Source: Clostridia bacterium
GTDB taxonomy: Bacteria > Bacillota > Clostridia > TANB77 > CAG-508
Assembly: GCA_017510525.1 (NCBI GenBank)
Contig: JAFWNC010000008.1
Span: forward strand, 11,119-75,118
Direction: 5' to 3'
DNA: 64,000 bases
The notes below the pieces were generated by a model, which saw only the letters and a program-made list of their open reading frames with translations, was not told where the DNA came from and made no database searches. Position numbers and translations under genes: made by a program. The number at the start of each line of letters is the position of its first letter. Positions within the stretch are counted from its first letter, which is position 1. This document shows, one piece after another, positions 33,975 through 54,803 of the stretch.

Positions 33975-33980
33975 AAAAAT

Positions 33981-34013
33981 GTAGGGGCGACGTTAGCGTT
34001 GCCCGATTTTTTT
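33981..34013 (+). terminator. REP-like GC hairpin plus T7 (terminator of minC)
   Basis: gtaggggcgacgttagcgttgcccgattttttt. Confidence 0.6.
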
Positions 34014-34115: not shown

Positions 34116-34117
34116 AG

Positions 34118-34800: not shown

Positions 34801-34816
34801 GGATTCCTCCTTTTTT

Positions 34817-34914
34817 ATTGGGTATGCTTTCGTAGAATGGACGAGCAATGCTCGCCCCTACAATATTGGGTATGGCGTTGTAGAATGGGTACATTGCTAA
34901 TAGTGCCCTACTAT
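34817..34914. repeat. tandem pair of REP-like units
   Basis: ttgggtatgctttcgtagaatgg-ACGAGCAATGCTCG-cccctaca, then ttgggtatggcgttgtagaatgg-GTACATTGCTAATAGTGC-cctacta. Confidence 0.6.
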
Positions 34915-35061
34915 TTATGGTTTGTTTTTTAGGTCTTTGAGGATGTTTTCGGGGTTTTGGTTGTTTAATACTTGCTTGGCTTTGTTGATTCCTTGTTCTA
35001 GTTCTTGTTTATCCATTTTAGATAACATATCAAGCAGGGTATTTATATCTTTATTATTCAT
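34915..35061 (-). CDS. small protein, 48 aa (MNNKDINTLLDMLSKMDKQELEQGINKAKQVLNNQNPENILKDLKNKP)
   Basis: Hand-translated. AAAGGAG RBS. Below the ORF-track cutoff. Confidence 0.4.
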   Translation of the reverse strand: MNNKDINTLLDMLSKMDKQELEQGINKAKQVLNNQNPENILKDLKNKP

Positions 35062-35357
35062 TTGGTTTCATCTCCTTTGTTTTAGTATATGATTTGAGTT
35101 ATTTTATATGCGTGTCTAAAAAATTATAATTAAAAGTATTGATATTTTAATATCTCATAAAAAAAATTGTCTATATGTTTTTACAATTTGTCTTTTTGGG
35201 TAAACAATATTCTATATTATGTAACTTTAAAATAGATTTTTAAAATTATTCTACAAAAAATTTAATCTAAATGTAATATTCGACAAAATTCAGTATTTTC
35301 CGTAAAATCAGAGATTACAAGGAAAACTAAAAATTACTTATATAAAAAAAAGTGACA

Positions 35358-35385
35358 TTGACAGGTTTTTAAAAGTATTTAAAAT
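35358..35385 (+). promoter_or_regulatory. putative promoter TTGACA-16-TAAAAT for the first giant operon
   Basis: ttgaca 35358-35363. Confidence 0.35.
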
Positions 35386-35435
35386 AAAAATTAAAATAAA
35401 GGCAGAATATTTTTATTGTGAGAATGTTCAAAGAA

Positions 35436-35457
35436 ATGGAGTACTTAAGTTCTCCAT
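35436..35457. repeat. family-2 palindromic element
   Basis: atggagtacttaagttctccat, sited between the putative promoter and the RBS of the 35483 gene (operator-like position). Confidence 0.55.
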
Positions 35458-35482
35458 ATTAAGAAATTTTGGAGGTAGAGAA

Positions 35483-38400
35483 ATGCAAAAGAATAGGAGT
35501 ATAAGAGAGAAAATCACAGCTAGTGTTTTAGTTATATGTTTGCTTATGTCATATTTGGCTACATTTAGTAGTATCTATGTAACTTATGCTAGTGATGAAA
35601 AAGCTGAAGTTGTTTTCAAGGCTGAAATTGTTGATTTGAATAGTGAAAATTCAAATGAACAATCTGAAAATAATGAAAACACTGAAGAAACAGAGAATAA
35701 TGAAGAGCTGGAGAATCAGGTTGAAACTGAAGAACAAGATGAAAATAGTTCAAATCAAGAAGCTGAGGTTAACCTACAAACTAACACCCCTGAATCAGAA
35801 GAAAAACCTGGAAGTAGGTTTGTTCTTAAGATTAAGGTTGGTGTTAAAAATAATGGTTATTTGAAAAACGGCAAGATTGAAATCTCTGATCTTGAAAACC
35901 AAATTTTCTCTATTTCTGAATTCTCTAATCCTATAGTTCAATCTATCTCTGATGGAGTTATAAAACTTAAAACAATAGATGCAAAAGAAGAATATGAAAT
36001 CGAAATACCTCTTGAATTAAAGAAAAATGCTGATGTTTCAGCAAATTCTATAGAAAACGGAACAAAGATAAAACTAACTGGAATATATGTTGACGAACAA
36101 GCTGTTGAAGAAAAAGTTGAAAGGGAACAAACTGTTTTCGTTGAGGTTGAAAACGAAAGAAAAATCGAAATAGGAAGCAACATTGAAAAATTTATTAAAT
36201 ATACTCAAGATAGTAAAGAATATGCGTTAATCCAAGTAAAGGTTGAAATTCAAGATACAGCTGAAAACCTTATATTACCTGTTAAATCAACTGATTTAGC
36301 AATCAAACTTCCTGAAATAACTGTTGAGGAAGGTAAGGAAAAGCCAGAGATTGAAAAAGTTTTAGTTGTTGCAAAAAATACTGGTTTCACAAATGGTAAA
36401 TTAGGTTCAGATGTTAAGTTTACTGAGGATAATTATAGTGTAAACAATGATGGAAAACTTAATATACATGTTGAAAATAAGGCTGAAGATGGAAAATACA
36501 AACAAACAAATGGAAAAGATGAATATTTAATAGAGCTAACTTATAATAATGCAGAAAATATTCAAACACAGTCTGCAAAAGGCAAAATTGAAGCTACTAT
36601 TAGTTTATTTGACAAGAAATCTACAAAAGATGTAAATAGTGTTTTAGAACAAGAATACAAATTTGATGAAGCTTCTACAAATAAGGTTACATATGATGTT
36701 CGAACTCTTACAGAAAAAATAAGTAAAGGAAATATATATGCTAACATAAACAAAGAAGATAACTACTATGAAACAGAATATAAAAATGAGGTTTCATTTA
36801 ATATTTCAAGAGCCAATAGTATAAAAACAATTGAAATTAGAGAATATGATGAAAGTTATTATATTGAAGATGGTAGTAAATATTCTACAAAAACTGATGT
36901 TGGGCTAGATACTTATTACAAAACATCAACCTTTAATAAAGAAAACTTAGTTAATATAATTGGCGAAAACGGTAGTTTAGAAATACTAAACGAGGAGGGA
37001 GATAGCTTAATTACTATTAATAAAGATACACAAGCTAATGAAGAAGGAAATATTGTTTATCCTTATAATAACAAAATCGAAAAAATCGTTGTAAGGGTTA
37101 ATAATCCTGAAAAAGAGGGAATTTTAAATATTCAAAATACAAAAGCAATTGAAAAGAGTAATTATACTAAAGAATCTTTAGTTCAATTTAAAGGAATTGC
37201 TAATTCATATAATGCAGCTGCTTTATATGATGAGGATATCAAGTCTGAGCTTGGTATTAAAGAAATTAAAACAGAAATGGTTGGAACAAAAACTAGAGCA
37301 GACATGGAGATTTCAAGGGGAACTTTAAGTACTATTGTTAAAAATGAAGATGTTGAGTTTGATATTTGTTTAAACAATTCAAAAGATTCAAGCGATATGT
37401 ATATTAATCCTGAATTTGAAATTACTCTTCCAGCTGGTGTTACAACGGCTACTATTAAAGATATCAACGTTTTATACGGAAATAATGAGCTTATAAAGTC
37501 AGAAGAGTCAAGAACTGGTTTGAATGATAACAATCAAGTTGTAATTTATGTAAAACTTGATGGTGTTCAAAAGAATTATAGTATTGGTGATACTGAAAGA
37601 GGAACAACTATTGTTGTTAAAACTGATATTGAATTAGATAGATATTTATCTAATAGAGAAGCTCCAGTTGAACTTAGATATAGAAATGAAAATGCTACAG
37701 AATATGGTTCTGAGGTTGTTGACGGTGTTGCAAAAGAAACACTAAATTTCAAATTTCAGGGCGGATTTGGTGTTGTAGCAAGCCAAAGAATAAGCGGATA
37801 TAATGCTGATAATTATGTAATGTCTATGAACCAAGGTGAGCAAATAGCTTCTATTTCTGATGTTGAAACTTCAAAACAAGCTGAAATGGAGATTGCTTTA
37901 ATTAATAATAATGAAGAGATTATGGAAAACCCTATTATATTAGGAAGAATTCCTTTTGATGGTGTTACTTCAATTAGTAGTTCAGAGAGCTTGGGAGCAA
38001 ATGTAAATACAAAAATGACTAGCGGAATAGAGAAAATTGTTGGAAAAGATGTTAAAGTATATTATTCAGAAAATGGTGAAGCAACAAAAGAATTAGATAA
38101 AGCTGAAAATGGATGGAGAGAAGATATTGGCGATTTACAAAAGGTTAAATCATATTTAATAGTTGTTGATGGAAATATTGAGATTGGTGAAAGTTTAGCT
38201 TTAAAATATGGTTTTGAAATTCCTGAAAACTTAGGAAAAAATGCTAGTATTTTCGGAACTTTTGGAGTTTACTATGATACTGAAATTGGAACAAAATTAG
38301 TTGAGGCTAATAAAGTTGGTCTTGAAACTGAAAAGGAAGAAATTCAAGAATCAGAGGAAACAGTATCTTTATTTAGTGTTAGAGCAGTACGTTACGGAAC

Positions 38401-40351
38401 AAATATAGCAGGAAATGGGGCTTCATCAGGAACAGAAAATAATGAATCATCAGATGAAATAACAAATATATTAGAAGATGTTATTTATGAAAGACCAAGA
38501 TATGAAGCACCAATTGATGCAGATCCAATACAAATACAATTTGAAAACGAAAGTGAAAGCTCGGTAATAATTAAAGGTGGAACAATTGAATATAATGTTT
38601 CAGTTAGAAATATGAAAACAAATCCAATAGAAGATGTTGGTGTAACAATAACTCTTCCACAGGGTTTAACATATATTGACTCAAATTCTAAAAATGAAAA
38701 TGATATAAATACAAATGGAAGTTATAATACATCAAACAGAACAGTAAGTTTCAATTTTAATTCAATAGATAAATATGAATATATAACATTGAAATTTAGT
38801 GTAGATAGTGAAATATCTGCAAATGAAGTTCAGATAACAACAAATGTACAATCTGATGATATTGATAAAGAATATAATAATACTAAACAATATACTGTTA
38901 AACAAGGAGAATTTGAAGCAAGTTATAGTAATTTGTCAGGAAATAATTATATTAAATCAGGTGAAGAAATAAAATATAAATTAACTCTTGTAAATGTATC
39001 AGGTGAAACTGTATCAGATATTACAGTTGAATCAGACTTCCCAGACGAATTAAGCTTACAAAGCGTTGAATTTGTAAAAGGTGATTATAAAACAGAAGGA
39101 TATATAACAAATAATTCATTTGTTATATCACAATATTTATTACCTAATGAATCTTTTGAAATTATTATAACAGCTGAAGCTGGAAATATAAGTGCTTCAG
39201 AAAAACAAGTAAGTAATTATTTAACAGTTACAACAGATAAGAAAACATATAGAACAGAATCTGTTGAAACTATAATTCAACAATCATCTGAAACATCAAA
39301 TGGATCAGAAGGTGGTTCAGATTATAGAGAAAATAGTAATGGCGGTATTAATATAGATACAGCTGGAGAGTATAAAATAACAGGAACAGCTTGGATTGAC
39401 AAAAATATGAATGGTTCAAGAGATTCAAGTGAAAAAGGTTTAGAAGGGATAGTAGTAAAATTATTTAATGCAAATACAAATCAATTAGTAGATAAAACAA
39501 CAACAGATGGAGCTGGAGGCTATATCTTTACAGGTTTATCACAGGGTAATTATTATATTATATTTGAATATGATGGAGAAACATATTCTTTAACAGATTA
39601 CCAAAAATCTGGAGTATCTGGTGACAAAAATTCAGATGCAATTTTATCAAATGGAGAAACTAGAACAGATACTATAGTAATAAATGATAGAAGTATTAGT
39701 AATATTGATATAGGACTAATTCAAGGAAATGTATTTGATCTAACATTAGAAAAAACAGTATCTAAAATAACTGTTCAAAATGATAATGGAACAAAGGTTA
39801 TTGATGGTAATGATTCATCACTTGCAAAAGTTGAAATAAAAGCAAAAGATTTGGCATCTTCAACTGTATATATTGAATATAAAATAAAAGTTACAAATAA
39901 TGGACAAATTCCAGGAATAGTTCAAAAAATTGTTGATTATCTTCCTAAAGATACTAATTTAAATACTGAGATAAATCCAAATTGGTATATTGGAAATGAT
40001 GGATATGCTTATAATGAACAACTTTCAGGAACTGTAATTAATCCTAAAGAAACAAAGGAAATAAGTTTAATAATATCAAAAGATATAACCGAAAATAATA
40101 CTGGATTAACTTCAAATAAAGCTGAAATAGCATTAGCATCAAATGAGTTAGGAATACAAGATATAGATTCATCTCCAGGAAATTCAAATTCTACAGAAGA
40201 TGATATGGGACAAGCAGATGTAATCATCTCAATAAGCACTGGTGGAGGGCTAATAAGCGCTTCAATCCTTATTACGGTTCTGATTAATCTATTACTCATT
40301 GGCTATGTAATAAAAAGAAAAATTGATAGAGATAGAGAGGTGATATTATAA
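35483..40351 (+). CDS. giant secreted surface protein A (1622 aa)
   Basis: Signal peptide, acidic low-complexity stretch, DUF11-type repeats (TLVNVSGETVSDITVESDFPDELS), a CnaB/SdrD-B-like domain (ITGTAWIDKNMNGSRD...GNYYIIFEYDGETY). C-terminus ...DIDSSPGNSNSTEDDMGQADVIISISTGGG, then a TM segment, then KRKIDRDRE. Confidence 0.8.
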   Translation: MQKNRSIREKITASVLVICLLMSYLATFSSIYVTYASDEKAEVVFKAEIVDLNSENSNEQSENNENTEETENNEELENQVETEEQDENSSNQEAEVNLQTNTPESEEKPGSRFVLKIKVGVKNNGYLKNGKIEISDLENQIFSISEFSNPIVQSISDGVIKLKTIDAKEEYEIEIPLELKKNADVSANSIENGTKIKLTGIYVDEQAVEEKVEREQTVFVEVENERKIEIGSNIEKFIKYTQDSKEYALIQVKVEIQDTAENLILPVKSTDLAIKLPEITVEEGKEKPEIEKVLVVAKNTGFTNGKLGSDVKFTEDNYSVNNDGKLNIHVENKAEDGKYKQTNGKDEYLIELTYNNAENIQTQSAKGKIEATISLFDKKSTKDVNSVLEQEYKFDEASTNKVTYDVRTLTEKISKGNIYANINKEDNYYETEYKNEVSFNISRANSIKTIEIREYDESYYIEDGSKYSTKTDVGLDTYYKTSTFNKENLVNIIGENGSLEILNEEGDSLITINKDTQANEEGNIVYPYNNKIEKIVVRVNNPEKEGILNIQNTKAIEKSNYTKESLVQFKGIANSYNAAALYDEDIKSELGIKEIKTEMVGTKTRADMEISRGTLSTIVKNEDVEFDICLNNSKDSSDMYINPEFEITLPAGVTTATIKDINVLYGNNELIKSEESRTGLNDNNQVVIYVKLDGVQKNYSIGDTERGTTIVVKTDIELDRYLSNREAPVELRYRNENATEYGSEVVDGVAKETLNFKFQGGFGVVASQRISGYNADNYVMSMNQGEQIASISDVETSKQAEMEIALINNNEEIMENPIILGRIPFDGVTSISSSESLGANVNTKMTSGIEKIVGKDVKVYYSENGEATKELDKAENGWREDIGDLQKVKSYLIVVDGNIEIGESLALKYGFEIPENLGKNASIFGTFGVYYDTEIGTKLVEANKVGLETEKEEIQESEETVSLFSVRAVRYGTNIAGNGASSGTENNESSDEITNILEDVIYERPRYEAPIDADPIQIQFENESESSVIIKGGTIEYNVSVRNMKTNPIEDVGVTITLPQGLTYIDSNSKNENDINTNGSYNTSNRTVSFNFNSIDKYEYITLKFSVDSEISANEVQITTNVQSDDIDKEYNNTKQYTVKQGEFEASYSNLSGNNYIKSGEEIKYKLTLVNVSGETVSDITVESDFPDELSLQSVEFVKGDYKTEGYITNNSFVISQYLLPNESFEIIITAEAGNISASEKQVSNYLTVTTDKKTYRTESVETIIQQSSETSNGSEGGSDYRENSNGGINIDTAGEYKITGTAWIDKNMNGSRDSSEKGLEGIVVKLFNANTNQLVDKTTTDGAGGYIFTGLSQGNYYIIFEYDGETYSLTDYQKSGVSGDKNSDAILSNGETRTDTIVINDRSISNIDIGLIQGNVFDLTLEKTVSKITVQNDNGTKVIDGNDSSLAKVEIKAKDLASSTVYIEYKIKVTNNGQIPGIVQKIVDYLPKDTNLNTEINPNWYIGNDGYAYNEQLSGTVINPKETKEISLIISKDITENNTGLTSNKAEIALASNELGIQDIDSSPGNSNSTEDDMGQADVIISISTGGGLISASILITVLINLLLIGYVIKRKIDRDREVIL

Positions 40352-43300
40352 TGAATAGTAAAAGAATTGCAAGTTTATTAATCATAATAATCTTATTCAT
40401 GTTAATGTTACCTGAAATAACTATCGCAGCTGAAAATACAGGAAGTTGGGTTGATTTGATAGATGATGATGATAATGAAACAGTATATAGTTTTATAGAT
40501 TATTCAAAATCATGTGGATTTAGAGCATATGATACATATAATGGTAATACTTCGTTTTATAATTTTATACCAAATTATGTTCCAGCTGGTGTATACAGTG
40601 ATAATAGTTATAAGCCATTTTATAGACTTTTATCTTCTTCTAAGATAGGTACTAATGGAAGACCTTTTAGCAGAAAAACATATGTAAAAAATGATAGTGT
40701 AAATAAACCAAGTTTTACAGAAAGGTATATTATTTATAAAGCAAATGAAAGTAAAAATGAAAGCGGTGAAAAAAATAGGAGAACTAGCTATTTAGCTGCG
40801 CAAAATGCATGGTTTAAACTAAAAGGTAATAAAATAAAATTAGATGATGAAGCACAGGATATTTTAGATGAAGCTTTTGAGTATAATACATGGGCTAAAT
40901 CTGTTGAAAGTGAATTAAAAGCTACAACTGGAAAAACAATAGATAATGCAACTGATGAAGAATTAAATGAAGCTTTAGGTGACGATTTTTATTTTGATGC
41001 ATCAAATAGTACTATATCTGTTGTGAATGATGATGATGGAAAAGGAGATTATATTCTCGTATCAAACATAAAAACAAATGGAAGAGATTCGTTTACACAT
41101 AAATCAAAGAAAAATGATCCTGATGATTGTACATTTAGTTTAAGTCCTAGAATTACTAATATAAAAATAACATTTTATAAGAATAATAATAAGAATGATA
41201 CTATGTCTCCTATAGAAGGAAAATATAAGAAAGGAGCTACAAAGTGTAGTTCTGATGGAGAAGTAACAGGTCTATTCTATGAAGGAGGTACAGATACAGG
41301 TATTACTTTAGAATTTCAAGAAATAGAAGACCATATAAGTAAATCTCAGACACGTTGTCAAACAACTTCAACTGCAATTTGTGAAATAAGTGGAAAAAAC
41401 CATTTCATTTTACAAGAAGATTCAAATGATAAGGGACCAGGTTATTATCCTTTTCCATTTGCAAAAGAGAAATTCAATTTAAAAATACCAGCTGATTTTA
41501 TAAAAGAGAATAATATTACTGGAATAAGTGAAATTAATATTGGAGTAAAAACGGAAAAAAGAGAAGTTGGATTGTTAAAGGTAAAATATGATGAAATAGT
41601 TTTAGATGATAAAAATAGTAGCATTAACAATAAAAATGATGGAACTGGTCTAAAAAGAAGTCAATTAGACGATTATACATTTATTTCACAAATTACAACA
41701 AATTCAGCTCTTGGGCTAGAAACGGAAACACCAAATGTAATAACAACAAATACATTGCTTGCAATGCCTGAAAAAACGTTAGATGAATATGAACAAATTG
41801 CAAAAATAGACCAACCAATTTTATTAGCAGATGCTTCAAATACATCATCACAAACTTCAGAAACAGAAGTTGAAGAAGAAGAATATAAAGTTAAAAAATA
41901 TAACTCAACAAGTTATCGTTTCTTAGAAACTGTAGCTGATCCTGTAGGAACAAATGATATACAAGTATCTAAGTTAAAAACAGAAGATGGATATAAATAT
42001 TACCAATTTACAAAAGGTGATAGCATAGTATATGGAAAACTAGAGGAATCAAGTAAAACAATAAACTTCTATACAAATAACTTAAGATATGGAAGTTCAA
42101 TAGATATAGGAACTTGTTTTGGAATAGGTGCAGGTCAAATGAAACTTACTGGTGATTCAACTTCAACAACACAAACAATACAAGCAACAGAAGGTGTAAA
42201 AGCTGTTACAAATGCTTCAACCAATATACAATTAAGAGTAACAGATTTAAAATTAACAGCAAATAAAAACAAAACAATAATAACAGCTGAATTAGGTGGA
42301 AATGATAAATATTTAGAGATATTTGGAAATAAAGTAACATGGGGCTCTAAAACATATACAGCAACAGTAAGTGGTAAGAAAATGACTATAGAAGTTAATA
42401 CAGAAGATATATTATCATCATCTGATATGAGGCTTGAAGTTGAATATGGAATAATAGATGGAACGCTTAGAAATCAAGGATTCAGGTTTACAGAATATCA
42501 GAAAACAGGACTAAAAAAATACATAACATTATCAGTACCAAATGAATTAGCAAATACACTAGAAAAGAAATTTGCTGCAACCGTAAATGATGATATAGAA
42601 ACAACAATGAGTAAAAGCGTAAATGGAATAAATTATCTAGTTAGAACAAAAGGAAATCAATTAGCATTTTTAAAACCTAGAGAGATTGCTGAAGAAACTG
42701 AATTGAGAACAAGTGAAGATGGAAGTGGTACATCATATATTGCTCAAACAGGAAATGTTTTATTTGGTTTAAGATTTAGTGATTCATCAAGTGGATATTA
42801 TATTTCATCAACAGATTCAATTACTGCAAATAAAAGTTTATCTGTTTTTGAAACAATTAAATTTGAAAACAAAGGATATAATTTAAAATTATCATCTCAG
42901 GATTTAACTCAAAACCCTGTTCTTGACATTGAATTAAGGTATACTGTAAAAGATTCAAACGATTCATCAGTATCAGCAAATATAGTTCAATATATACGAA
43001 TAGAAACAACAGGAAAATACACTGAAGTTCCAACAGAAGAGAGCGTTTTAGGAAAAGGAACAATTGCCGGAAACTTACAAACTTTAGTAGATGGTTCACT
43101 AACATATAAAGAAGTATTAGAAGAATCATTATTATTAAATACTCAATTAACATCATTATTTACTGGATGGGCAAATTTAATTAATAGTTCAGATTATCAA
43201 GAATATACACAAGAAAATTCAGTAAGAACAAATACAATAAACAGTGAAGAAGATGGAAATCCTGCTTTAAAAGTATTTACAACAGATGGACTTTTAACAG

Positions 43301-46300
43301 GTGGAATTAGACCTGAAGTTGCTGGTGTAGAGTGGGATGGTAATGATTTAGTAGTAACAATGAAATCAACAACTGCAAGTATTTCAAGTATACACTTAGC
43401 TTCTTATAATTATAAAGAAGGTTGGATACAAGATAATGTTTCTAGTGGAAAAGCACCAACTATCTATTATCAACAATCACAATTAAGCGTATCAAACAAT
43501 AGAATAACTATACCAAATGCAAAAAATCTATTAGATAATATATATACTAATTTTTATATATTAGTAAGAGATACTGCTGGGGAAAATGCTGTTTTAAATA
43601 TACAAGCTATACGTAATGATAATGGAAAAACATATGTTGTAGAAGATAATTATTATAGAATATTAGGTACAACACATTTTGCAGATGACAAAATTAATTT
43701 TACAAATGAAAAATTCTATACAGAATATAATGATGGAAGTAAAGATAAAATTACATTTAATATTCCATTTACATTTAGAAATGGGTCAAGTGATTATTGT
43801 TTAGATTTTTATGATGACAATAAAGCTAAAGAAGCAACTGGTTCTGTAATAGATAATAATGTTGCTAAAATAACATTTGATAAAAGATTGATACAATCAT
43901 TAGGAGAAGGTCGCTCGCTACAAATAAATGCAACTGTAAAAGATGACCATAATAATGATGTAACAGTTACAATAGAATTAAAAATAATGTATAAGGGACA
44001 AATACTAACACAAGGAAATAATTATAAAGATGTTATTGGAAATTATATTGTAACAGTAGAAAGTCCAGTATATGACCTAGATATATCTATTGACAAATCT
44101 GCATTTTTCGTTGATAAAACAAGAAAAGACCATAGTGTTGAAGGTTCTGTTAATGCAAATACTTATCATGATTTTCAATTATTAGTTCAAAATATACCAG
44201 AAGGATATACTTTAGATAGCGTTAATTCAGGAGCTTATGGTGATTTATTTGGTACGCCTAATTATGATATTTATGATAAAGATTTAGTTGTTACCCAATA
44301 TGAATCAAAGATACTTGATGCAGTTGCAGGATTTACTCAAAAATATTTTGGAGATTTCCAATTTGAAGAAAGAGTAAATAAGAAAGTCTTAGAAGTACAA
44401 AATGGTTTGCCTAAATATGGATTAGTTCAAGATAATGCATCAGTTAGACATTATATTCTTTTCAAAAATGCGAGTGGAGATGTAATTACTTTAACTGTTA
44501 AAATTGAGAAAATTGCAAGTGTTGTTGTTAATAGAACATTAGAAAAAGGCGTAAATGTAAATAATTTATATATAGAAGGACCTTATGATGATAATATGAG
44601 TTCTCTTAAAGATGCAGTAATAAATGCAAAAAATAACAATGATAGTATACAAATTACTGAAACAGCAGATACATATAATAATAAAGATATGGAAGTATAT
44701 TTCAATACAGGAGAGAATGTAAATCAGAAAGATGCTTGGACCTTACAATATGAATTGTTAAATGATTATCAAGATGGTGGAGATATATCTTTAAATAATG
44801 AGTCTATTCAGGTAATTAGAGTAGAACAAAGAGGCTATTTAAATCAAGGATATAATCATTATGCAAATATAGAACTTTATTTTGAAGATGCTATCAGTTA
44901 TGAAATAAACTATAGATATAGAATTAATGAAAGTGGTTATGGTGGAGATGGATATGCTGGGCAAATGCTTTCAATTGTAGGCGATGCTGATGAAAACGGA
45001 ATTATATATACATCAAATCTTGGTAACTCAGCTAATAATGAATATATAGAAGGTAATAAAGCAATTTTCAGAGTAAATAGAAATGGATTTTCATGTATAA
45101 CAGTAAGATTTAGTGACTATTCAATACAAAACATATTTGTTTATGCACCTACATTGTTTATAGGAGAAGTTTTAAACAAAGCAGGAGAAAATCTAATCGA
45201 AGATTTACCTTCAATAAGAGACGAAGGACTATTAAATAGAGGTGCTCAGTTCTATGTAGACTTAGAAAAAGGTGATGATAAAACATTAGTATTTTATAAT
45301 ATAACTGGTGAGGTTGGCTTAGGAGATACACTTGGAGTTCCAGCTATAAAAAATGGAGCGAGAACAGTTGCATGGTATGGAGAAAGTCAAACTAATGATG
45401 GATTAGAATGGATTACAACAAAGGATATGTGGGAAAATTATGGAGCAAATTCAACACTTATAAGAAAAGAATCGAATGGAAGCGGAAAAGAAACATATAC
45501 AGTTGATTTAGGAGATATAGAAGGATTTGCTTTAGACCCTGATAATATAAAAGAATATTCAGATGAATCTGAAAATAATCCTAATATTATACCTTCAAAT
45601 TACTATTATAATGTTGATACAGATACTTATGAATTACGTTGGTCTTTTAGATCAACTGACTTACATCATGATGGAAAAGCTATAAATAAATTTGATACAA
45701 CCCTATTTACAATAATATTTAGAGGAAATCCTTCACCAACACCAGGTGAAGATCCAGAACTTGTATATGCAAAAGAAATTCAAGAATTTAGAAAAAATGA
45801 TGAAGATACACCAGATTCTAGAAAAGTAACACCTCCAGAAGAAGGTTGGGACTTTACAATGGAAGTTGGAGGAGAAGTTTGGGTAGATAGTCCAGACACA
45901 GATAAAGGTGTAAATACTAAATATGGATTAAGGGATGAAAATGATAGCAGAATAACTCAAGATATGACTGTACACTTAGAGGAATATGAAGGAACGAGAT
46001 TAATTAATACGATAGATAAAACAATAAAAGCAGGGGAAAGTAGCTATATTTTTGAAGGGATATTACCTCCACTTGCATCAGCGGGACAAGATAGACATTA
46101 TTATAATATAAGATTTGAATATGATGGTCAAAAATATGAACCAACAGAGTTTTTATCAACATCAAGTGTTGACATAGATAATGGTATTGATAGTACAAAT
46201 GGAAATGTTAATAGTATAAAACAATATAGAATTAATGATATGATTAATAACTTGTCAAAATATAAAGAAAATACATGTTCATGGGTAACAGAAAGTGAGA

Positions 46301-49300
46301 CAACAAGAAAAGATTTTGATAGTAGATTATCTACAATAGATAATAAAAATGGACAAGTTGATTATAAGAATAATCCAAATTATGACGAAAAAATCAGTGC
46401 TTCAACGCTTGATGCAGGGTATACAATACCAGTTGGACTTGAAGATTATCATCTAAAAAATAGAGATACATCAATTCAAGTAAAAAGAACAAAAATACAG
46501 CCAGATACACACTACACAATAAAAGGATATAGTAAATCTATAAACTTAGGTTTAGTCGAAAGAGATGAGTCAGATATAGCTGTAATTCAAGACTTGTATT
46601 ATGCTAAAACAGTTGTAAAACACTATGAACAAACATATAAATATAATGCATTTAAAGTTAATAATCAAGATATTAATTACACAGTAAAAGGCCAGGATTA
46701 TAAACTTGGATTATATTCATCAGACTTTATTTATAATTCAGGAATTTATGAAGATACAGCAGTTGATACATTCATGAGTGCTACAGAACTTAGACTATTC
46801 TTAACATATAGAATTAATGTAATTAATGAGTCTCCAAATGTAACAACAGTAGTAGGACAATTGGCTGATTACTATGATGATTCATTTACATTAATTACGG
46901 ATGAAGTAAAACCTGGAATTATAGAAGAGGGTGTAGCTAATAATACAATAAATAATAATAAAGTAGTTGCTTATCCAAGTTTCTATAGAAAAATAGATTC
47001 AGGACAAAACGGAGTATATAATTTTGATGCTGTTGCAGATGGATATGGAAATAATAATAGTGTTACATGGACAGATACAGCTGAAAAAGGTAAGAAGATA
47101 TGTAATATTAATCAATCTATGGAACCAGGTGAAAAAATAGAGCTATTTGTAACATTCGAAGTTGACCAAGAAACAGCTCAAAATGCTATACGTGAAAGCA
47201 TGAAAACAGCATATGAAAACCTAGGAGATGATGCAACACAAGATGAATATGTTAAAGCTGTTGCAAATGAAGTTAGAACAAAGCTTATGGGTGAACAACA
47301 TAACTATATAGAATTAAACAATTATTCAACAAAATATAGAAGAAGAATGAATAATACTTCTGCATATTCTGTAGATTCAAATTCAGGAAAAATAGATAGA
47401 GACTCATGCCCAGGAAATATGGTAATTGGTTCTCTAAAAGAAGATGATGAATGTCAAGCACCAACACTAAATGTATTTGTAGAAGGAAGTCATATAAGAG
47501 AAATATCAGGTGTAGTTTGGGATGACTCAGATAAAGATAAAACAGATGGTCAATATATAGATGGAGAAACAAGTATTTCAAATATTCCAGTATCATTAAT
47601 AGAAAAGATAAAAGATCCTGATAATGGTATTGAATATGAATTTGTACATAAAGGAAAATATGATGGAGATACAGATACATTCAATATTAAAGCAGGTACA
47701 AATCAAGGTGATTCATATACATTATCATCAGAAGATGGCTATAAAATAAAAGGAATGGCACCAGGTATTTATTCATTAAGATTTGAATATGGTGCAAATG
47801 ATGATATGATTAATAATTCAAAGTTCACAGATATTAATTATAAATATAATGGACAAGATTATAAAAATACAAAAGTAAGTCAAAACTTAGATGAAGAGTG
47901 GATGGATGTATCTGAGAATTCTTCTAATAGACTTTCAGATGCAGTAGACTATATTCCAGCAAGATTAAGAAATATAGCATATTCAAGAACAATATCAGCT
48001 GAAAATGGCTCAGTTTTAGCTTCAAAATCGCAAGAAAAATTACAAAACACATACATGAGAGCTGATTCATATAAAATGAAATTAATACCAGAAATCAAAG
48101 AAACTGAAGAAGGAACTCTTGAATATACATTGCCTTACGATGTTAAAGATGTTGATTTTGGTTTAGAGAAAAGACCAGAAACGAAACTATATCTTGACAA
48201 GAAATTAACTGAAATTACTCTAACAAAATCAGATGGAACTGAAGCTATATTTAACGCAAAATTTGACTATGAATATGATACAGAAAATAATAAATATAAA
48301 TTAACAGGAATGGATATTGAAAATGGAATTAATCTCGATAAATTAACATCAGTTGTTGAGGATGGTAACCAACAAGGATTCCGCTATATTCAAATGGAAG
48401 ATAGTTATTTATCAAATTTAAGTATTAACTTAAAATATGATATCTATGTAACAAACATTTCTGAAGAAGATTATATAAGAAATACTGTTGCAGATATGAA
48501 AACACCAGATGCGTTATATAGAGCTGCAAGTGAATTAGAACAAAGTGGTTCATATCAAAGAGGTTATTTATGTGATGAAAACAATATTCTAGGAGGATAT
48601 TACTTTAAACATGAACGTTTTGGTTGGGATGATCCTGTTACTACAACAGTAGACCAAGTAGTTGATTATATTGATAATGATATAGGTCTAGATATTGAAG
48701 AAAATACAAATGTTGAAAACCATGCATGGAAATTTGCAGAAATATATGATGGAAAAACAGTTAAAAATAGCTTAGCAGGATTAATTACAAATGATTCATA
48801 TAATGGAGAAGAATTAACAGACAATGGATCAGGAAATTCAGGAAAAGGTGTAAGCTATTTTGGAACAGGTAAATCAAATATTGCATTATCTGTAAACAGC
48901 AATATAAAAACAAGTCAATCTGGAGACGAGCCAGAAAAAGAAACATACTATTCACATATGAAGAGAACAGATGCTAAAGTCAAAGATGATAAAATATATG
49001 ATGAAGGGCAAATAACTCTATCTGCAACTCAAGCAAGATATAAGGGAAATGATACACAAGATAAGTATAATCCAGATTTAACTAAAGAATTAAAACCAAA
49101 TGATACAGCAAAGATTGGAATTTCAACATCGAAAACAATAAGTAGTGGAACAGATTCAGACAACTTGAAATTTGATAACTTAGCTGAAATATTAGTATAT
49201 TCAAATACTGTAGGTAGAAAAGATATGGATGCTATTCCAGGAAATGCAAATAAGATTGCAAAATCAAGTGGTGCATGGGCAGCTGGACGTTCAGGAGGAG

Positions 49301-49500
49301 GAGAAAGAGACTCAGACTCACCAGAATATATTACAATAACTCCACCTACAGGATTAAGCGAAAAAATGGAAACAAGTAATAACATGTTAATAGTAACGAT
49401 TGTTGCAACTGCAACTGCGTTTATAGCATCAATTACAGTTCCAATAATAACAATCCTATATGACAAAAGTAGAAAAACAGTAAAAGAGGATGATCAATAA
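40351..49500 (+). CDS. giant secreted surface protein B (3049 aa)
   Basis: ATG overlaps the A stop (TAATG). Signal peptide. N-terminal domain with SKSCGF and AAQNAWF, resembling thioester-domain Cys and Gln motifs. CnaB-like GVVWDDSDKDKTDGQYIDGE...GIYSLRFEYGANDD. C-terminus ...ITITPPTGLS, then 10 polar residues, a TM segment, and KSRKTVKEDDQ. Confidence 0.8.
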   Translation: MNSKRIASLLIIIILFMLMLPEITIAAENTGSWVDLIDDDDNETVYSFIDYSKSCGFRAYDTYNGNTSFYNFIPNYVPAGVYSDNSYKPFYRLLSSSKIGTNGRPFSRKTYVKNDSVNKPSFTERYIIYKANESKNESGEKNRRTSYLAAQNAWFKLKGNKIKLDDEAQDILDEAFEYNTWAKSVESELKATTGKTIDNATDEELNEALGDDFYFDASNSTISVVNDDDGKGDYILVSNIKTNGRDSFTHKSKKNDPDDCTFSLSPRITNIKITFYKNNNKNDTMSPIEGKYKKGATKCSSDGEVTGLFYEGGTDTGITLEFQEIEDHISKSQTRCQTTSTAICEISGKNHFILQEDSNDKGPGYYPFPFAKEKFNLKIPADFIKENNITGISEINIGVKTEKREVGLLKVKYDEIVLDDKNSSINNKNDGTGLKRSQLDDYTFISQITTNSALGLETETPNVITTNTLLAMPEKTLDEYEQIAKIDQPILLADASNTSSQTSETEVEEEEYKVKKYNSTSYRFLETVADPVGTNDIQVSKLKTEDGYKYYQFTKGDSIVYGKLEESSKTINFYTNNLRYGSSIDIGTCFGIGAGQMKLTGDSTSTTQTIQATEGVKAVTNASTNIQLRVTDLKLTANKNKTIITAELGGNDKYLEIFGNKVTWGSKTYTATVSGKKMTIEVNTEDILSSSDMRLEVEYGIIDGTLRNQGFRFTEYQKTGLKKYITLSVPNELANTLEKKFAATVNDDIETTMSKSVNGINYLVRTKGNQLAFLKPREIAEETELRTSEDGSGTSYIAQTGNVLFGLRFSDSSSGYYISSTDSITANKSLSVFETIKFENKGYNLKLSSQDLTQNPVLDIELRYTVKDSNDSSVSANIVQYIRIETTGKYTEVPTEESVLGKGTIAGNLQTLVDGSLTYKEVLEESLLLNTQLTSLFTGWANLINSSDYQEYTQENSVRTNTINSEEDGNPALKVFTTDGLLTGGIRPEVAGVEWDGNDLVVTMKSTTASISSIHLASYNYKEGWIQDNVSSGKAPTIYYQQSQLSVSNNRITIPNAKNLLDNIYTNFYILVRDTAGENAVLNIQAIRNDNGKTYVVEDNYYRILGTTHFADDKINFTNEKFYTEYNDGSKDKITFNIPFTFRNGSSDYCLDFYDDNKAKEATGSVIDNNVAKITFDKRLIQSLGEGRSLQINATVKDDHNNDVTVTIELKIMYKGQILTQGNNYKDVIGNYIVTVESPVYDLDISIDKSAFFVDKTRKDHSVEGSVNANTYHDFQLLVQNIPEGYTLDSVNSGAYGDLFGTPNYDIYDKDLVVTQYESKILDAVAGFTQKYFGDFQFEERVNKKVLEVQNGLPKYGLVQDNASVRHYILFKNASGDVITLTVKIEKIASVVVNRTLEKGVNVNNLYIEGPYDDNMSSLKDAVINAKNNNDSIQITETADTYNNKDMEVYFNTGENVNQKDAWTLQYELLNDYQDGGDISLNNESIQVIRVEQRGYLNQGYNHYANIELYFEDAISYEINYRYRINESGYGGDGYAGQMLSIVGDADENGIIYTSNLGNSANNEYIEGNKAIFRVNRNGFSCITVRFSDYSIQNIFVYAPTLFIGEVLNKAGENLIEDLPSIRDEGLLNRGAQFYVDLEKGDDKTLVFYNITGEVGLGDTLGVPAIKNGARTVAWYGESQTNDGLEWITTKDMWENYGANSTLIRKESNGSGKETYTVDLGDIEGFALDPDNIKEYSDESENNPNIIPSNYYYNVDTDTYELRWSFRSTDLHHDGKAINKFDTTLFTIIFRGNPSPTPGEDPELVYAKEIQEFRKNDEDTPDSRKVTPPEEGWDFTMEVGGEVWVDSPDTDKGVNTKYGLRDENDSRITQDMTVHLEEYEGTRLINTIDKTIKAGESSYIFEGILPPLASAGQDRHYYNIRFEYDGQKYEPTEFLSTSSVDIDNGIDSTNGNVNSIKQYRINDMINNLSKYKENTCSWVTESETTRKDFDSRLSTIDNKNGQVDYKNNPNYDEKISASTLDAGYTIPVGLEDYHLKNRDTSIQVKRTKIQPDTHYTIKGYSKSINLGLVERDESDIAVIQDLYYAKTVVKHYEQTYKYNAFKVNNQDINYTVKGQDYKLGLYSSDFIYNSGIYEDTAVDTFMSATELRLFLTYRINVINESPNVTTVVGQLADYYDDSFTLITDEVKPGIIEEGVANNTINNNKVVAYPSFYRKIDSGQNGVYNFDAVADGYGNNNSVTWTDTAEKGKKICNINQSMEPGEKIELFVTFEVDQETAQNAIRESMKTAYENLGDDATQDEYVKAVANEVRTKLMGEQHNYIELNNYSTKYRRRMNNTSAYSVDSNSGKIDRDSCPGNMVIGSLKEDDECQAPTLNVFVEGSHIREISGVVWDDSDKDKTDGQYIDGETSISNIPVSLIEKIKDPDNGIEYEFVHKGKYDGDTDTFNIKAGTNQGDSYTLSSEDGYKIKGMAPGIYSLRFEYGANDDMINNSKFTDINYKYNGQDYKNTKVSQNLDEEWMDVSENSSNRLSDAVDYIPARLRNIAYSRTISAENGSVLASKSQEKLQNTYMRADSYKMKLIPEIKETEEGTLEYTLPYDVKDVDFGLEKRPETKLYLDKKLTEITLTKSDGTEAIFNAKFDYEYDTENNKYKLTGMDIENGINLDKLTSVVEDGNQQGFRYIQMEDSYLSNLSINLKYDIYVTNISEEDYIRNTVADMKTPDALYRAASELEQSGSYQRGYLCDENNILGGYYFKHERFGWDDPVTTTVDQVVDYIDNDIGLDIEENTNVENHAWKFAEIYDGKTVKNSLAGLITNDSYNGEELTDNGSGNSGKGVSYFGTGKSNIALSVNSNIKTSQSGDEPEKETYYSHMKRTDAKVKDDKIYDEGQITLSATQARYKGNDTQDKYNPDLTKELKPNDTAKIGISTSKTISSGTDSDNLKFDNLAEILVYSNTVGRKDMDAIPGNANKIAKSSGAWAAGRSGGGERDSDSPEYITITPPTGLSEKMETSNNMLIVTIVATATAFIASITVPIITILYDKSRKTVKEDDQ

Positions 49501-49904: not shown

Positions 49905-52900
49905 ATGTTAAAGAATAGGAGAAGTACTAAGAAAGTATTAGCCTTATTTCTAGTATTTACTATTATGTTTGCTAATATGTTCACAGTTGTTGAATATGCT
50001 GCTTCAAATCTAGGTAAATTAGATTCCAGCGATATTCATGAAAACGTAGAATATGATGCAAAACTTGTAGTAAATGAAGAAGAAAAAGGTTATGAAAACG
50101 CTTTCGATATGAATGAAGAAAACGCAGGTATTAAGCTAGAACTTAATGTAGAAGATAGCGGATACCTTAAAAATGCAAGTATCTCATTTGAATCAGAAAA
50201 CGGATTGAATTTTGAGATTGGAAAAATCGCTGAAAATGATTTAGTTCAAAATTTAGAAAATAACAAATTAAAACTAAATCAAATAAACGAAGGTGATAGT
50301 TTAGAAATCACAGTTCCAATTAAATTCAAAAACACAGATTCAATAGACAATTTAAGCAAAGTTGTATCTGCTAAGTTGTCTGGAATATATGTTGACAATT
50401 CTGGTAAAGAGAACAAAATATCAGAAACAGTAAACTTAAAAGTTACTTGGAATGTTAATACAGAATTAACTGTTTCATCAGAAATAACAAAATATATTCC
50501 TTATAGCTCTAGCAACGGTTCAGGAGTAATTGTTCAAACAAATGTAAAAATGAACATGGGTCAAAAAGCTGAACTAGTTGGAAAAGAGAAATTAGAAATT
50601 GAAGCTTTAAAAATACAAGGTCTAAAACTAGACAAAGTAACAGTTATAAGAAACAATGAAGCTGATTTCTCAGAAAAAGATTGGAAACAAAGTGATGATA
50701 AGATCACAATCGATATTAAGAATGATAACTCTAAAGAGTTTGTTAAAGAAGAATTCTTAATTACTTATATTTTCACTGGAACAGACACTAATGTTTTACC
50801 ATTATCTTTAAATAGTAAAATATTAGCTACAGTTGAAATGTTTGGAAGTAATGAGAAAATAGAAACAGAAAAAGAAGAGTTATACACAGTTTCTGAAAAG
50901 ATTGGGGAAATCGTTTCTATATCTTCTGAATTATCTGAAGAAGTTTTAAATAAAGGAAATATTATAGCTGATAAATATAATGAAGCTAAGGCTTATACAA
51001 CTAACTATGAAATAAACCATAGAATAAATATTTCTTCAACAGATTTAGTTGAAAAGATTTCTATTACTGATATTGATGAAAACTTTAAAGCTGGAGAAAA
51101 TAGTTATTCTACAGTAAATAGCTCATTATATAAGAAAGTTAAAGTTTCTAAAGATGAATTTGAAAAGATCTTAGGAACTGATGGTAAGATTTCTGTTATG
51201 AGCAGAGGAGAAGAAATAGCTACAATTACTAAAGATTCTAAAGTAGAAGATGGTAGTTATGTAGCTGAAATAGCTAAAGAAGTAAGTAGAGTAACAGTTA
51301 ATACTACTGCTCCAAAAACAGAAGGAAACTTAAATATTAAATTAAGTAAAGAAATAAAAGATACAGAATATGAATTAAGCGATATTAAAGCTTGGGATTT
51401 AATGGAATATACTGCACAAGGAAGTATTACTTTAACAGGTGATACACAAAACAAAGTTGCAGATATGCAAAAATCTATTAAATTAGAAAATACTAAAACA
51501 GATACTAATATTTCTTTAAATAAAACATCATTAGGTACAATAGTAAATAATGAAAATGTTGAAATAAAAGTAAGTTTAAATAATGATAAAATAGGAACAG
51601 ACTTTTATAAAAATCCTAAATTTGAAATTACTTTACCTGAATATATTCAAGAAGTAGATTTCAAAGATGTAGGTATTGCTAACGGTGGAGAAGATTTCAA
51701 AATTTCTAAAGCAGAAGCTAATGTTGAAGACGGTAGAGTTGTTATTAGAATTGAACTTGAGGGAACTCAAAAATCATATCCACTAAATAATGTAACAGAT
51801 GGTACAAATATAATTATCAACACAAACATGAGATTAAAATTATTAACACCTTCTAAAGAAGATATAATTACATTAAAATATATAAATGAAGATGCTACAG
51901 AATATTTAGATAACGGATATGAAGAAGTTAAAATATCATATGTAGCACCTACAGGAGTTATAAGTGTTAACTCTACATCAAATTATAATGGAGATAACTC
52001 AAAAGTAATTTCTGTAAATCAAGGTACAAAAACAGATAAGATTGAAATATTTGATAATGCTAAAACAGCAACAATGGATATCTTAGTTATGAACAATAAC
52101 GAAAATACAACTAAAGATGTTAAAATCTTAGGTAGAATTCCTTTCAAAGGAGTTAAAGATGTTAGAACAGGTGAAGAATTAGGAACAACAGTTGATACAA
52201 CAATGACTTCACAAATCATAGCTAACCAAGAAAACAATGCAAATGTTATAATTTATTATTCAGAAAATGGAGAAGCTACAGCTGATCTAACTGATATGAA
52301 TAATGGTTGGAGAACAGATATTACTGATTTTTCAAAGGTTAAATCATACTTAATAGTAACTGACAATTATGAAATGAATAAAGGTGATATATTAAGATTT
52401 TTTTATGAATATACAATTCCTGAAAATCTAGAACATAACAATTATATCTATGGTACATTTGGAACAATTTATAAAGATGTATCAGAAATAGCTGAAAATC
52501 AAGAAATATCTACACCAGACTTAGTTGGACTTACAACAGGTAAAGGACCAAATATTTCAGTTACTACAAAATTAAGTACTGGTAAAGATTCAATTAAAGA
52601 ATCTGAAAAAGTTAAATATACAGCTGAAGTTAAAAACACTGGTGAAGAAGATGCTAGAGATGTAGTAGTAAAAACAGAACTTCCAGAAGGAACAACATTT
52701 GTTGAATATCAAAAACAAGGTTCAATATATGAAGCAAAAGGCTGGAAGTATATTGATGGAAGAGAAAGCATAGAGAAATTTGATACAATTAAACCAGGAG
52801 AAACAAAAGTTATTGAATTTACTGTTGAAGCAAATTCAGTATCTAATGAAATTACTACTGTTGATTGGAAAACAGAGATTACAGCTAAGGACTTAGCTAA

Positions 52901-54803
52901 AACATTAGAATCTGAAGTTATAACAACAACTATTGAAAAAGGTGAGATTATAACTGAAGAATTTACAGAGACTATAGCTGATATAGTACAAGAAAACGAT
53001 GATATTATTTACAAAATAGCTGTAAAGAATACATCTGATAAAGATATTTCAAATATTAAAGTCGAAAAAGACTTACCAGATTTATTAAAATATAGTGAAA
53101 GCTATGTTCAAGATTTTGATGAAGAATTAAACTTAATAGAAAATACAGCTGATAGTAACTATGATATGGATAATAGAAAAGTAACATGGACTATTGATAA
53201 TATTAAAGCTGGAACAACAAGATATGTTGTATTAAAAGCAGTAGCTGGAGAATTAACTGGTGATGTTTATGAAGATACAATTACTACAAATTCAAAAGTA
53301 ACAGCAAATTCAAATACATACTATACAGCTGATGTAAATGAGAAAATTGCTAGACCTAAATTAGTTGTAGAGCAAATTTCTAATAAAAATGGTGAATTTA
53401 TTGGTGAAGGTGAAATAGTTGAATATACAATAAAAGTTAAAAATGAAGGTATTGTTCAAGCTGAACAAGTTGAAGTAACTGATAATTTACCTAATGAATT
53501 AAAAGTTAGATCTTTAAAATATAAAGTTGATGGAACTGAATTGTCAAGAACAGTATCTAAAAATGAAGACGCTGTTGTGTATACAAGTTTAGCTCCACAA
53601 AGTGAAGTAGTAATTAACTTATCTGCTGTTGCTAATACAATAGATCAAACTCAAAAATCTGTATCTAATGTTGCTACAATAGATACGGCAAATGCAAATA
53701 GTGCAACAACAAATAAAGTAAATAATACTATTGAAAGAACAATAGAAGCTCAAACAGCTGGTAATAACGAATCAGAAAATATTTATAAAATAACTGGTCT
53801 AGCATTTGTTGATACAAATCAAAATGGACAAAAAGATGAAAATGAAGCTGGATTAGAAGGAATTGAAGCAGTTTTGGTTGATGTAAACAGCTTAAACAAG
53901 ATTCAAACAGTTGCTACAGGTGCAAATGGAGAATATTCATTTAGTAATTTATCAAACGGAAATTATTATGTAATATTCTACCATAATTCAACAAGATATG
54001 ATTTAGCAACATATAGAAAAGAAAATGTACCTGAAAATCTAAATTCAAATGTTATTTCTGCTGAAATAGAAGAAAATGGAGAAAAGAGAACAGTTGCTGT
54101 TACAGATGCATTAACTATTTCAAATGGAAGTATTTCAAATATTAATATAGGTTTAACAGATACAAAGATATTTGATTTATCACTAGAAAAAACTATTTCA
54201 AGTATCACAGTTCAAAATGAAAATGGAACAAAGAAAAATGAATATAATAACTTAGGCTTAGCCAAAGTTGAAATTGCACCTAAAGATTTAGCTGATACTA
54301 AAGTATATGTTGAATATAAGATAACAGTTAAAAATGAAGGTGATGTTGAAGGATATGCTAAGAAAATAGTAGATTACTTACCAGCTGGAATGGAATTTAG
54401 TACAGAACTTAATAAAAACTGGTATCAAGGAACAGACGGAAAACTATATAGTGAAGAATTAGCTAATACAGTAATAGAAAAAGGACAATCTGCTACAATT
54501 ACATTAATTCTTTCAAAACAAATGACTGAAGAAAATACAGGTATTGTAACAAATACAGCTGAAATAGTAGAAAGTTATAATAAATTAGGATTAGCTGATA
54601 AAGATTCAAGTCCAAATAATAAAGCTCAAAATGAGGATGACTTAGGAAGAGCTGATGCTATCCTATCAATCAATACAGGTAGTACATTAATTTATATAAC
54701 AGCAATTGTTACTACAATAATGATGGCGATCATATTATTTATAGTAATAAGGATGAATAGGTACAAGATAAAATGGTACTTACAAAAAAAGGAGGTGAAT
54801 TAA
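49905..54803 (+). CDS. giant secreted surface protein C (1632 aa), paralogue of A
   Basis: Signal peptide, DUF11-type repeats, CnaB-like ITGLAFVDTNQNGQKDENEAGLEGIEAVLVD...GNYYVIFYHNSTRYD. C-terminal region aligns with A. Ends ...DKDSSPNNKAQNEDDLGRADAILSINTGST, then a TM segment, then RMNRYKIKWYLQKK. Confidence 0.8.
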   Translation: MLKNRRSTKKVLALFLVFTIMFANMFTVVEYAASNLGKLDSSDIHENVEYDAKLVVNEEEKGYENAFDMNEENAGIKLELNVEDSGYLKNASISFESENGLNFEIGKIAENDLVQNLENNKLKLNQINEGDSLEITVPIKFKNTDSIDNLSKVVSAKLSGIYVDNSGKENKISETVNLKVTWNVNTELTVSSEITKYIPYSSSNGSGVIVQTNVKMNMGQKAELVGKEKLEIEALKIQGLKLDKVTVIRNNEADFSEKDWKQSDDKITIDIKNDNSKEFVKEEFLITYIFTGTDTNVLPLSLNSKILATVEMFGSNEKIETEKEELYTVSEKIGEIVSISSELSEEVLNKGNIIADKYNEAKAYTTNYEINHRINISSTDLVEKISITDIDENFKAGENSYSTVNSSLYKKVKVSKDEFEKILGTDGKISVMSRGEEIATITKDSKVEDGSYVAEIAKEVSRVTVNTTAPKTEGNLNIKLSKEIKDTEYELSDIKAWDLMEYTAQGSITLTGDTQNKVADMQKSIKLENTKTDTNISLNKTSLGTIVNNENVEIKVSLNNDKIGTDFYKNPKFEITLPEYIQEVDFKDVGIANGGEDFKISKAEANVEDGRVVIRIELEGTQKSYPLNNVTDGTNIIINTNMRLKLLTPSKEDIITLKYINEDATEYLDNGYEEVKISYVAPTGVISVNSTSNYNGDNSKVISVNQGTKTDKIEIFDNAKTATMDILVMNNNENTTKDVKILGRIPFKGVKDVRTGEELGTTVDTTMTSQIIANQENNANVIIYYSENGEATADLTDMNNGWRTDITDFSKVKSYLIVTDNYEMNKGDILRFFYEYTIPENLEHNNYIYGTFGTIYKDVSEIAENQEISTPDLVGLTTGKGPNISVTTKLSTGKDSIKESEKVKYTAEVKNTGEEDARDVVVKTELPEGTTFVEYQKQGSIYEAKGWKYIDGRESIEKFDTIKPGETKVIEFTVEANSVSNEITTVDWKTEITAKDLAKTLESEVITTTIEKGEIITEEFTETIADIVQENDDIIYKIAVKNTSDKDISNIKVEKDLPDLLKYSESYVQDFDEELNLIENTADSNYDMDNRKVTWTIDNIKAGTTRYVVLKAVAGELTGDVYEDTITTNSKVTANSNTYYTADVNEKIARPKLVVEQISNKNGEFIGEGEIVEYTIKVKNEGIVQAEQVEVTDNLPNELKVRSLKYKVDGTELSRTVSKNEDAVVYTSLAPQSEVVINLSAVANTIDQTQKSVSNVATIDTANANSATTNKVNNTIERTIEAQTAGNNESENIYKITGLAFVDTNQNGQKDENEAGLEGIEAVLVDVNSLNKIQTVATGANGEYSFSNLSNGNYYVIFYHNSTRYDLATYRKENVPENLNSNVISAEIEENGEKRTVAVTDALTISNGSISNINIGLTDTKIFDLSLEKTISSITVQNENGTKKNEYNNLGLAKVEIAPKDLADTKVYVEYKITVKNEGDVEGYAKKIVDYLPAGMEFSTELNKNWYQGTDGKLYSEELANTVIEKGQSATITLILSKQMTEENTGIVTNTAEIVESYNKLGLADKDSSPNNKAQNEDDLGRADAILSINTGSTLIYITAIVTTIMMAIILFIVIRMNRYKIKWYLQKKEVN

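Follow-up and report, generated by a model that had tools for sequence, protein, structure and literature searches.

In the thioester domains (TEDs) described to date, the bond is formed by a Gln of the weak ΦQζΦΦ motif, which is carried by a β-strand towards the C-terminal end of the domain, and a separate motif, the helical TQxxΦW (earlier written TQxA(I/V)W), supplies a Gln and a Trp that contact the Cys backbone and are dispensable for the bond; in solved TEDs, this helper-helix Gln makes a hydrogen bond to the backbone of the Cys that forms the thioester (PMC4450167, PMC6194298). A further component of surface adhesins is CLIPPER, the present name of DUF11, an isopeptide-bond domain found in their stalks (PMC12617251). 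Here we compare these systems with a locus of a Clostridia bacterium (assembly GCA_017510525.1, contig JAFWNC010000008.1, forward-strand positions 11,119 to 75,118), the whole analysed stretch of 64,000 nucleotides (nt) being referred to as the window. The locus comprises four consecutive genes for giant proteins, A, B, C and D. An initial annotation, made from the sequence alone, had proposed that the N-termini of B and D resemble TEDs and had placed both under 40351-49500, an interval that covers gene B only, D being a separate gene.

Results

The head of D belongs to an unannotated domain family

The N-terminal head of D is a member of a previously unannotated domain family. A word-indexed homologue search gave just 2, 0 and 4 matches; it was an exhaustive HMMER search of representatives, with residues 1-480 of D and two relatives as queries, that exposed the family, which numbers 117 cluster representatives at the family threshold of E<=1e-3, of which 44 also pass E<=1e-30. 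A genome scan yielded 60 head-family loci, nearly all in metagenome-assembled genomes (MAGs) of uncultured gut Clostridia (rabbit, Hadza, deer, and chicken 'Ca. Scatovivens'), the exceptions being one Erysipelotrichaceae MAG and one 'Tenericutes' MAG.

Conservation was read from alignments of 19 sequences and of 42 head sequences, the members of which were picked by coverage. The invariant residues of the former include C61, P128, E130, L134, E136, V215, Q216, A218, W219, W220, E239, A240, F243 and Y246; in the latter, the invariant set comes down to C, Q, A, W and W (C61, Q216, A218, W219, W220), and neither alignment contains an invariant His. Five collinear motifs define the family, namely the Cys, TPxEA[WY][IV]LxE, [VI]QxAWW, EAxxFxxY and YP..E.FYI, with a variable β insertion between the TPxEA[WY][IV]LxE and [VI]QxAWW helices that takes the motif spacing from 22 to 170 amino acids (aa). 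D has all of these motifs. Translation confirmed the two that had been singled out at the outset, LLCSEEG at about residue 60 (C61) and YVQQAWW at about residue 215 (Q216), and their occurrence in D is clearly non-random. The N-terminal module, initially put at roughly 480 aa, is indeed conserved and lies after a signal peptide and before a Pro/Thr-rich linker, its extent in D being about residues 36-470; the poly-Asp run reported for this linker is also present and consists of seven Asp. Only 2 Cys occur in the whole of D.

AlphaFold2 (AF2) models were obtained for D 1-480 (pLDDT 70.6, pTM 0.63) and for D 36-290 (42 sequences, head only; pLDDT 77.1, pTM 0.66). Both place the Cys at a short strand and TPxEAW, VQxAWW and EAKEFDKYI on three helices (predicted in D at 128-134, 214-220 and 235-250), followed by a large β region. 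TED structures were the only recurrent fold, other than immunoglobulin (Ig)-like folds, in three structure searches on the two models. With Foldseek, no match of the D head model reached E<=1e-3; 6fwy, a class II TED, ranked third and fourth, at E 0.016 over 375-381 aligned columns and with TM-scores of at most 0.19.

The Gln motif that the initial annotation took D to match exactly merges the two published motifs described above (PMC4450167, PMC6194298). The VQQAWW segment of D is predicted to be helical and corresponds to the helper motif TQxAΦW, with Thr replaced by Val or Ile in the family, so that strict TQxxΦW is not matched; since it resembles this non-bonding helix and not the strand motif ΦQζΦΦ, its Gln was probably wrongly taken for the thioester Gln. 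A fourth motif, [ST][SA]Q.L[AT]…[AG]RWY, is found at the module end, in D at 441-456 (KTSQKLALGVEAARWY, including Q444), about 26 aa before the end. Its position on a predicted strand close to the end of the module, its retention in all D orthologues and the resemblance of its motif, SQKLA…RWY, to the Gln motif of the plasmid TED TIEpLS20 (SSYQRLMS) make Q444 a better candidate than Q216 for a canonical bond-forming Gln in D; in related class II TEDs the corresponding pattern is [VI][QK].[AI]LYYG. Across the family, 56 of 115 tails contain the SQxLA…RWY motif. Other candidate Gln residues (Q278, Q333, Q340, Q351 and the FDFQYMNAG position) were rejected as not conserved in the family.

Most D orthologues (L005-L023, e.g. 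L006 at about 11100-11500) carry a Cys/His-rich head insert, IWCNEGAKNCxCGGHH…CSGGAKKCSHGYYHNH, just before the SQxLA…RWY hairpin, which is possibly a metal-binding or disulfide knot. The D protein of the window is without this insert.

The head of D as a possible divergent thioester domain

The best single explanation of the D head is a very divergent, class II-like TED that serves as a covalent tip, a reading that we hold tentatively, at slightly less than an even chance. It is supported because the Cys strand, the QxAWW helix within a set of three helices and the SQxLA strand follow the TED motif order and match its secondary structure as predicted; the TIE-type architecture of D and the adjacent gene for a CLIPPER isopeptide-domain partner also count in its favour. 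In this reading, in which the TED fold, the thioester and the choice of the bonding Gln are all inferred, Cys61, on its strand, would form an internal thioester that a long protein, anchored to wall or membrane, presents at its distal tip, where it could react with an amine of a ligand and thereby produce covalent attachment. The VQxAWW helix with Gln216 would be the counterpart of the helper motif TQxAΦW and would pack against the Cys without bonding, and Gln444 in the strand motif SQKLA…RWY would be the bond-forming Gln in D.

A considerable body of evidence weighs against this assignment, and every formal test of TED membership with a clear outcome was negative. The B and D N-termini did not match Pfam TED (PF08341) or TED_2 (PF20610) at E<=10, nor did 19 head-family members at E<=1; these profiles are valid controls because four genuine plasmid TEDs matched TED_2 at 1e-6 to 8e-12 and TED at 4e-5 to 2e-4. 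Searches of Pfam as a whole, NCBIfam and PDB sequences with the B and D N-termini and with the 19-member alignment returned nothing relevant, NCBIfam being uninformative as a control because it also missed the genuine TED TIEpLS20, and the 19-member family profile had no match among PDB sequences. Profile-profile comparison likewise did not bear out the TED assignment of the initial annotation: against a class II TED profile that we built from 9 sequences of plasmid records, hhalign gave a Prob of 7.9% with Cys aligned to Cys, which is not significant, and with signal peptides trimmed the Prob was 0.8% and the Cys-Cys pairing was lost, for which reason that pairing was not counted; comparison with a single TED sequence was also not significant. 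With Pfam, NCBIfam and PDB matches absent and the trimmed alignment lacking its Cys pairing, the sequence evidence on TED membership is therefore negative. Neither B nor D contains the strict published patterns [YFL]CΦζ and TQxxΦW, and in the Cys context, LC[SA], the position that is hydrophobic in [YFL]CΦζ holds a small residue, as it does across the family. Confidence in the AF2 models is medium, and pLDDT falls below 50 at residues 425-442, beside Q444. Moreover, the bonding Gln is universal in known TEDs, whereas the SQxLA Gln is missing from about half of the head family (the P0002-P0021 clade), in which the Cys is still kept; Q216 as the partner, or no thioester at all, are therefore retained as alternatives. 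The TED-like tip first proposed is partly supported, by an invariant Cys and Gln with no invariant His, in a nearly Cys-free protein for which TED is the only recurrent non-Ig fold.

The head of B

Only the C-terminal portion of about 1200 aa is common to B and D (B 1794-3049 against D 476-1691, 30% identity, E 4e-128). Translation of B confirmed the motifs noted initially, SKSCGF at about residue 55 (C55) and AAQNAWF at about residue 152 (Q151). On sequence comparison, the head of B is a probable, strongly diverged (eroded) member of the D-type domain, with the same residues in the same order. The opposing view, that these motifs are leftovers or chance and that the N-terminus is a different or decayed domain without D-type function, is a serious possibility that we place somewhat below an even chance. 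It is favoured by the lack of relatives of the first 500 aa of B in both a homologue search and a large metagenome scan, by the failure of the family hidden Markov model (HMM) to detect B and of global hhalign to align it, by a Prob of only 4% in local hhalign, and by substitutions at near-invariant family positions (P128->F, E136->K, W220->F) together with the Cys context KSCG. Against it, the local alignment of B 26-330 with the family head profile runs collinearly through all head blocks (in B, DYSKSCGF, GRPFS..KTY, PSFTERYIIY, TSYLAAQNAWFKLKG and DILDEAFEY), and its score of 24.7 lies above all 120 composition-preserving shuffles (mean 13.0, sd 2.2, maximum 19.8). Six motifs of B are, in addition, collinear with those of D, among them YP..E.F (aa 366 in B and D alike) and SQ (446 in B, 443 in D), and B has the operon position of the family and the C-terminal module of the head-bearing relatives.

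A conserved pair of genes for giant surface proteins

A conserved two-gene unit of uncultured gut Clostridia occurs in the window as two tandem copies, in which B and D are the second genes. The unit consists of a gene for a CLIPPER/SdrD_B protein of about 1700 aa followed by a gene for a giant protein with an N-terminal head (Table 1). In about 58 of the 60 loci (L003-L062), an A/C-like CLIPPER/SdrD_B gene stands immediately upstream of the head-bearing B/D-like gene; the stop and start of the paired genes often overlap, the pairs are often in tandem, as in the window at 35483-59880, and the unit is present in several copies per genome. Our literature searches found no description of a gene pair encoding a CLIPPER protein and a head-bearing giant protein, and both the head family and the conserved pair appear to be undescribed.

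All four proteins have a signal peptide and a C-terminal transmembrane (TM) anchor. Members of the head family end in …ERDxSATE[LV][IV]T[FL][ST][PE]PTG; in B/D-like proteins, a spacer of about 12 aa separates [ST][PE]PTG from a TM helix, behind which comes a tail rich in Lys, and the A/C-like proteins end in …[IV]x[VI]xTG and then a TM helix. SPPTG fits the motif (S/P)PxTG of sortase B from Clostridioides difficile. No open reading frame (ORF) of >=150 codons within the window carries the sortase signature TLxTC, and a sortase adjoins the pair in only 1 of the 60 related loci (L052:14338-15135). The stalk of CnaB-like repeats that had been proposed reduces to isolated prealbumin/CnaB-like matches, because self-BLASTP found no internal repeats, and hence no tandem CnaB-like array, in B or D. 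A disulfide to the partner protein was also considered and was rejected because C contains no Cys and A contains only two, one of which is in the signal peptide.

Table 1. Positions of the genes and sequence features in the window
Feature	Position (nt)	Strand	Description
Gene A	35483..40351	+	1622 aa; DUF11/CLIPPER and SdrD_B domains; stop overlaps the start of B
Gene B	40351..49500	+	3049 aa; orphan head (aa 1-~470), unique middle, C-terminal module aa 1794-3049
B head motifs	40504..41700	+	SKSCGF 52-57 (C55), FTERYIIY 122-129, AAQNAWF 149-155 (Q151), LDEAFEY 172-178, YPFPFAKEKF 366-375, ISQITT 445-450
B C-terminal signal region	49336-49461		[ST][PE]PTG-type end
Gene C	49905..54803	+	1632 aa; paralogue of A; four DUF11/CLIPPER stretches and one SdrD_B; ends 1 nt before D
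Gene D	54805..59880	+	1691 aa; signal peptide/TM, head, PT/poly-Asp linker, conserved C-terminal module of ~1180 aa, [PE]PTG, TM helix, basic tail
D head module	54910..56214	+	aa 36-470; member of the unannotated domain family
D Cys61 codon	54985..54987	+	LLCSEEG, aa 59-65; family motif [ILFV][LFMY]C[SCATN]; short predicted strand
D VPEEAYILSEM	55183..55215	+	aa 127-137; family motif TPxEA[WY][IV]LxE; predicted helix
D YVQQAWW	55444..55464	+	aa 214-220; Q216-x-A-W-W invariant; predicted helix; similar to TQxA(I/V)W, a non-bonding motif of TEDs
D strand motif	56131..56172	+	aa 443-456, SQKLALGVEAARWY; [ST][SA]Q.L[AT]...RWY near module end; Q444, candidate canonical (ΦQζΦΦ-type) thioester Gln
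D Pro/Thr-rich linker	56224..56325	+	aa 474-507; ends in seven Asp
D C-terminal end	59746..59868	+	TFTEPTG (aa 1648-1654), spacer, TM helix (aa 1665-1688); sorting-signal-like, kept across the family
SAM riboswitch RF00162	8314-8422		67.7 bits; upstream of metK (8564-9706); ordinary

Genomic setting

The window has about 29% G+C and the content of a Firmicute-type chromosome, with spoIIR, spoIIE, metK, smc, prfA, pcrA, radC, mreCD, a PBP and minC. The four giant plus-strand genes come after these, and D is then followed by hsp33. A single ORF of 998 aa at 2596-5592 encodes a UDP-glucose pyrophosphorylase-type domain fused to a complete phosphoglucomutase/phosphomannomutase. The minC gene (33309-33974) is not followed by minD or minE. 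Directly downstream of it lies a perfect 51-nt inverted repeat (34010-34116; arms 34010-34060 and 34066-34116, 5-nt loop), G+C-rich despite the 29% G+C of the genome, which could be a strong hairpin or terminator, the end of a mobile element or an assembly artefact. The interval of about 1.5 kb before gene A (33975-35482) contains only small minus-strand ORFs of 115, 127 and 48 aa.

An identical D protein is also encoded on metagenome contigs. One of these, L001, extends past the end of the window and shows another giant protein in the neighbourhood: at L001 24513-25076, some 9.4 kb beyond D in the downstream direction, a called gene of 9562 aa begins soon after a gene with a G5 domain.

Discussion

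For the head of D, the analysis shows membership of a family, invariant residues, a predicted secondary structure and a conserved operon, and several readings other than a TED have to be weighed. The head may instead be a new non-covalent binding domain, an adhesin- or lectin-like tip in which the invariant Cys, together with the QxAWW helix and acidic residues on the helices, shapes a pocket for a ligand or forms the hydrophobic core, and its weak likeness to TEDs would then be generic, that of a β-sheet with a few helices beside an Ig-like sandwich. We regard this as plausible and yet unlikely. The uniform failure of the sequence-based TED tests and the low Foldseek TM-scores speak for it, as do the location of the sole universally conserved Gln on a predicted helix and the loss of the strand Gln in half of the family. 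However, a single invariant Cys in a secreted, nearly Cys-free protein would be unusual for a purely structural role, TED-fold entries recur in independent searches, and the three motif analogues are collinear with the TED motifs in matching secondary-structure contexts.

If the bond is covalent, it need not be canonical. A Cys61-Gln216 bond would make the head a new class of thioester domain that does not use the strand Gln; these two are the only polar residues invariant in all subfamilies, including the clade without SQxLA, and the equivalent helix Gln in solved TEDs adjoins the Cys via the backbone hydrogen bond (PMC4450167, PMC6194298). In known TEDs, however, this Gln is dispensable and never bond-forming, and we consider such a bond improbable. 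A wider version, to which we give marginally less credence still, is that the head belongs to a new covalent-bonding class in which the Cys partner is Q216 or a residue on another molecule, and that the gene pair builds a two-component surface fibre joined to a partner or target by this chemistry. The invariant Cys, together with the invariant acidic residues E130, E136 and E239, might also suggest a surface-displayed Cys-dependent enzyme, such as a protease, transglutaminase or transpeptidase. We rejected this reading, which we rate as very improbable, because there is no invariant His; an invariant Asp/Asn partner is likewise absent, and no Pfam, NCBIfam or PDB match to a peptidase or transglutaminase family was found.

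If the head of D is a TED, covalent adhesion would extend to uncultured, small-genome gut Clostridia from human, rabbit, deer and chicken samples, and the domain type would be one that is invisible to current profiles, so that TED surveys would miss a whole branch. The family could also help to tell apart what the helix Gln and the strand Gln each do, since in half of its members the helix Gln alone is kept. Should the head prove not to be a TED, it would still stand as a new and well-defined domain of adhesin tips whose invariant Cys is unexplained. The two-gene unit of giant surface proteins, with its several copies per genome, is probably the dominant feature of the surface of these cells.

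Among described systems, the class II TEDs of TIE proteins (BaTIE, 6FWV; EfmTIE86, 6FWY; SaTIE; TIEpLS20) are the best non-Ig structural matches of the D head. Like them, the head is N-terminal after a signal peptide, is predicted to have a Cys strand, three helices, then a β-sandwich and a Gln-bearing strand near the module end, and contains a QxAΦ-aromatic helix motif; D as a whole follows the plan of TIE-type adhesins, with a signal peptide, a head, a Pro-rich linker, prealbumin/CnaB-like domains, and [ST][PE]PTG with a TM helix and a basic tail. Unlike class II TEDs, which span about 250-280 aa with Cys and Gln 171-204 aa apart, the D module has about 435 aa, including the variable β insertion between its first two helices, and places 383 aa between the Cys and the candidate Gln; the helix Gln of its family is invariant, whereas the strand Gln is not universal. 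The class I TEDs (CpTIE, 5A0G; SfbI, 5A0L; Cpa, 2XI9; FNE, 5DCQ) have no β-sandwich, their Cys and Gln are 129-153 aa apart, and neither D nor B strictly follows the class I motifs, [YFL]CΦζ and TQxxΦW. Lastly, fibrillar adhesins with CLIPPER (DUF11) and SdrD_B stalks contain the same domains as the partner genes A and C; unlike in those adhesins, however, the stalk-domain protein and the head protein are here encoded by separate, translationally coupled genes.

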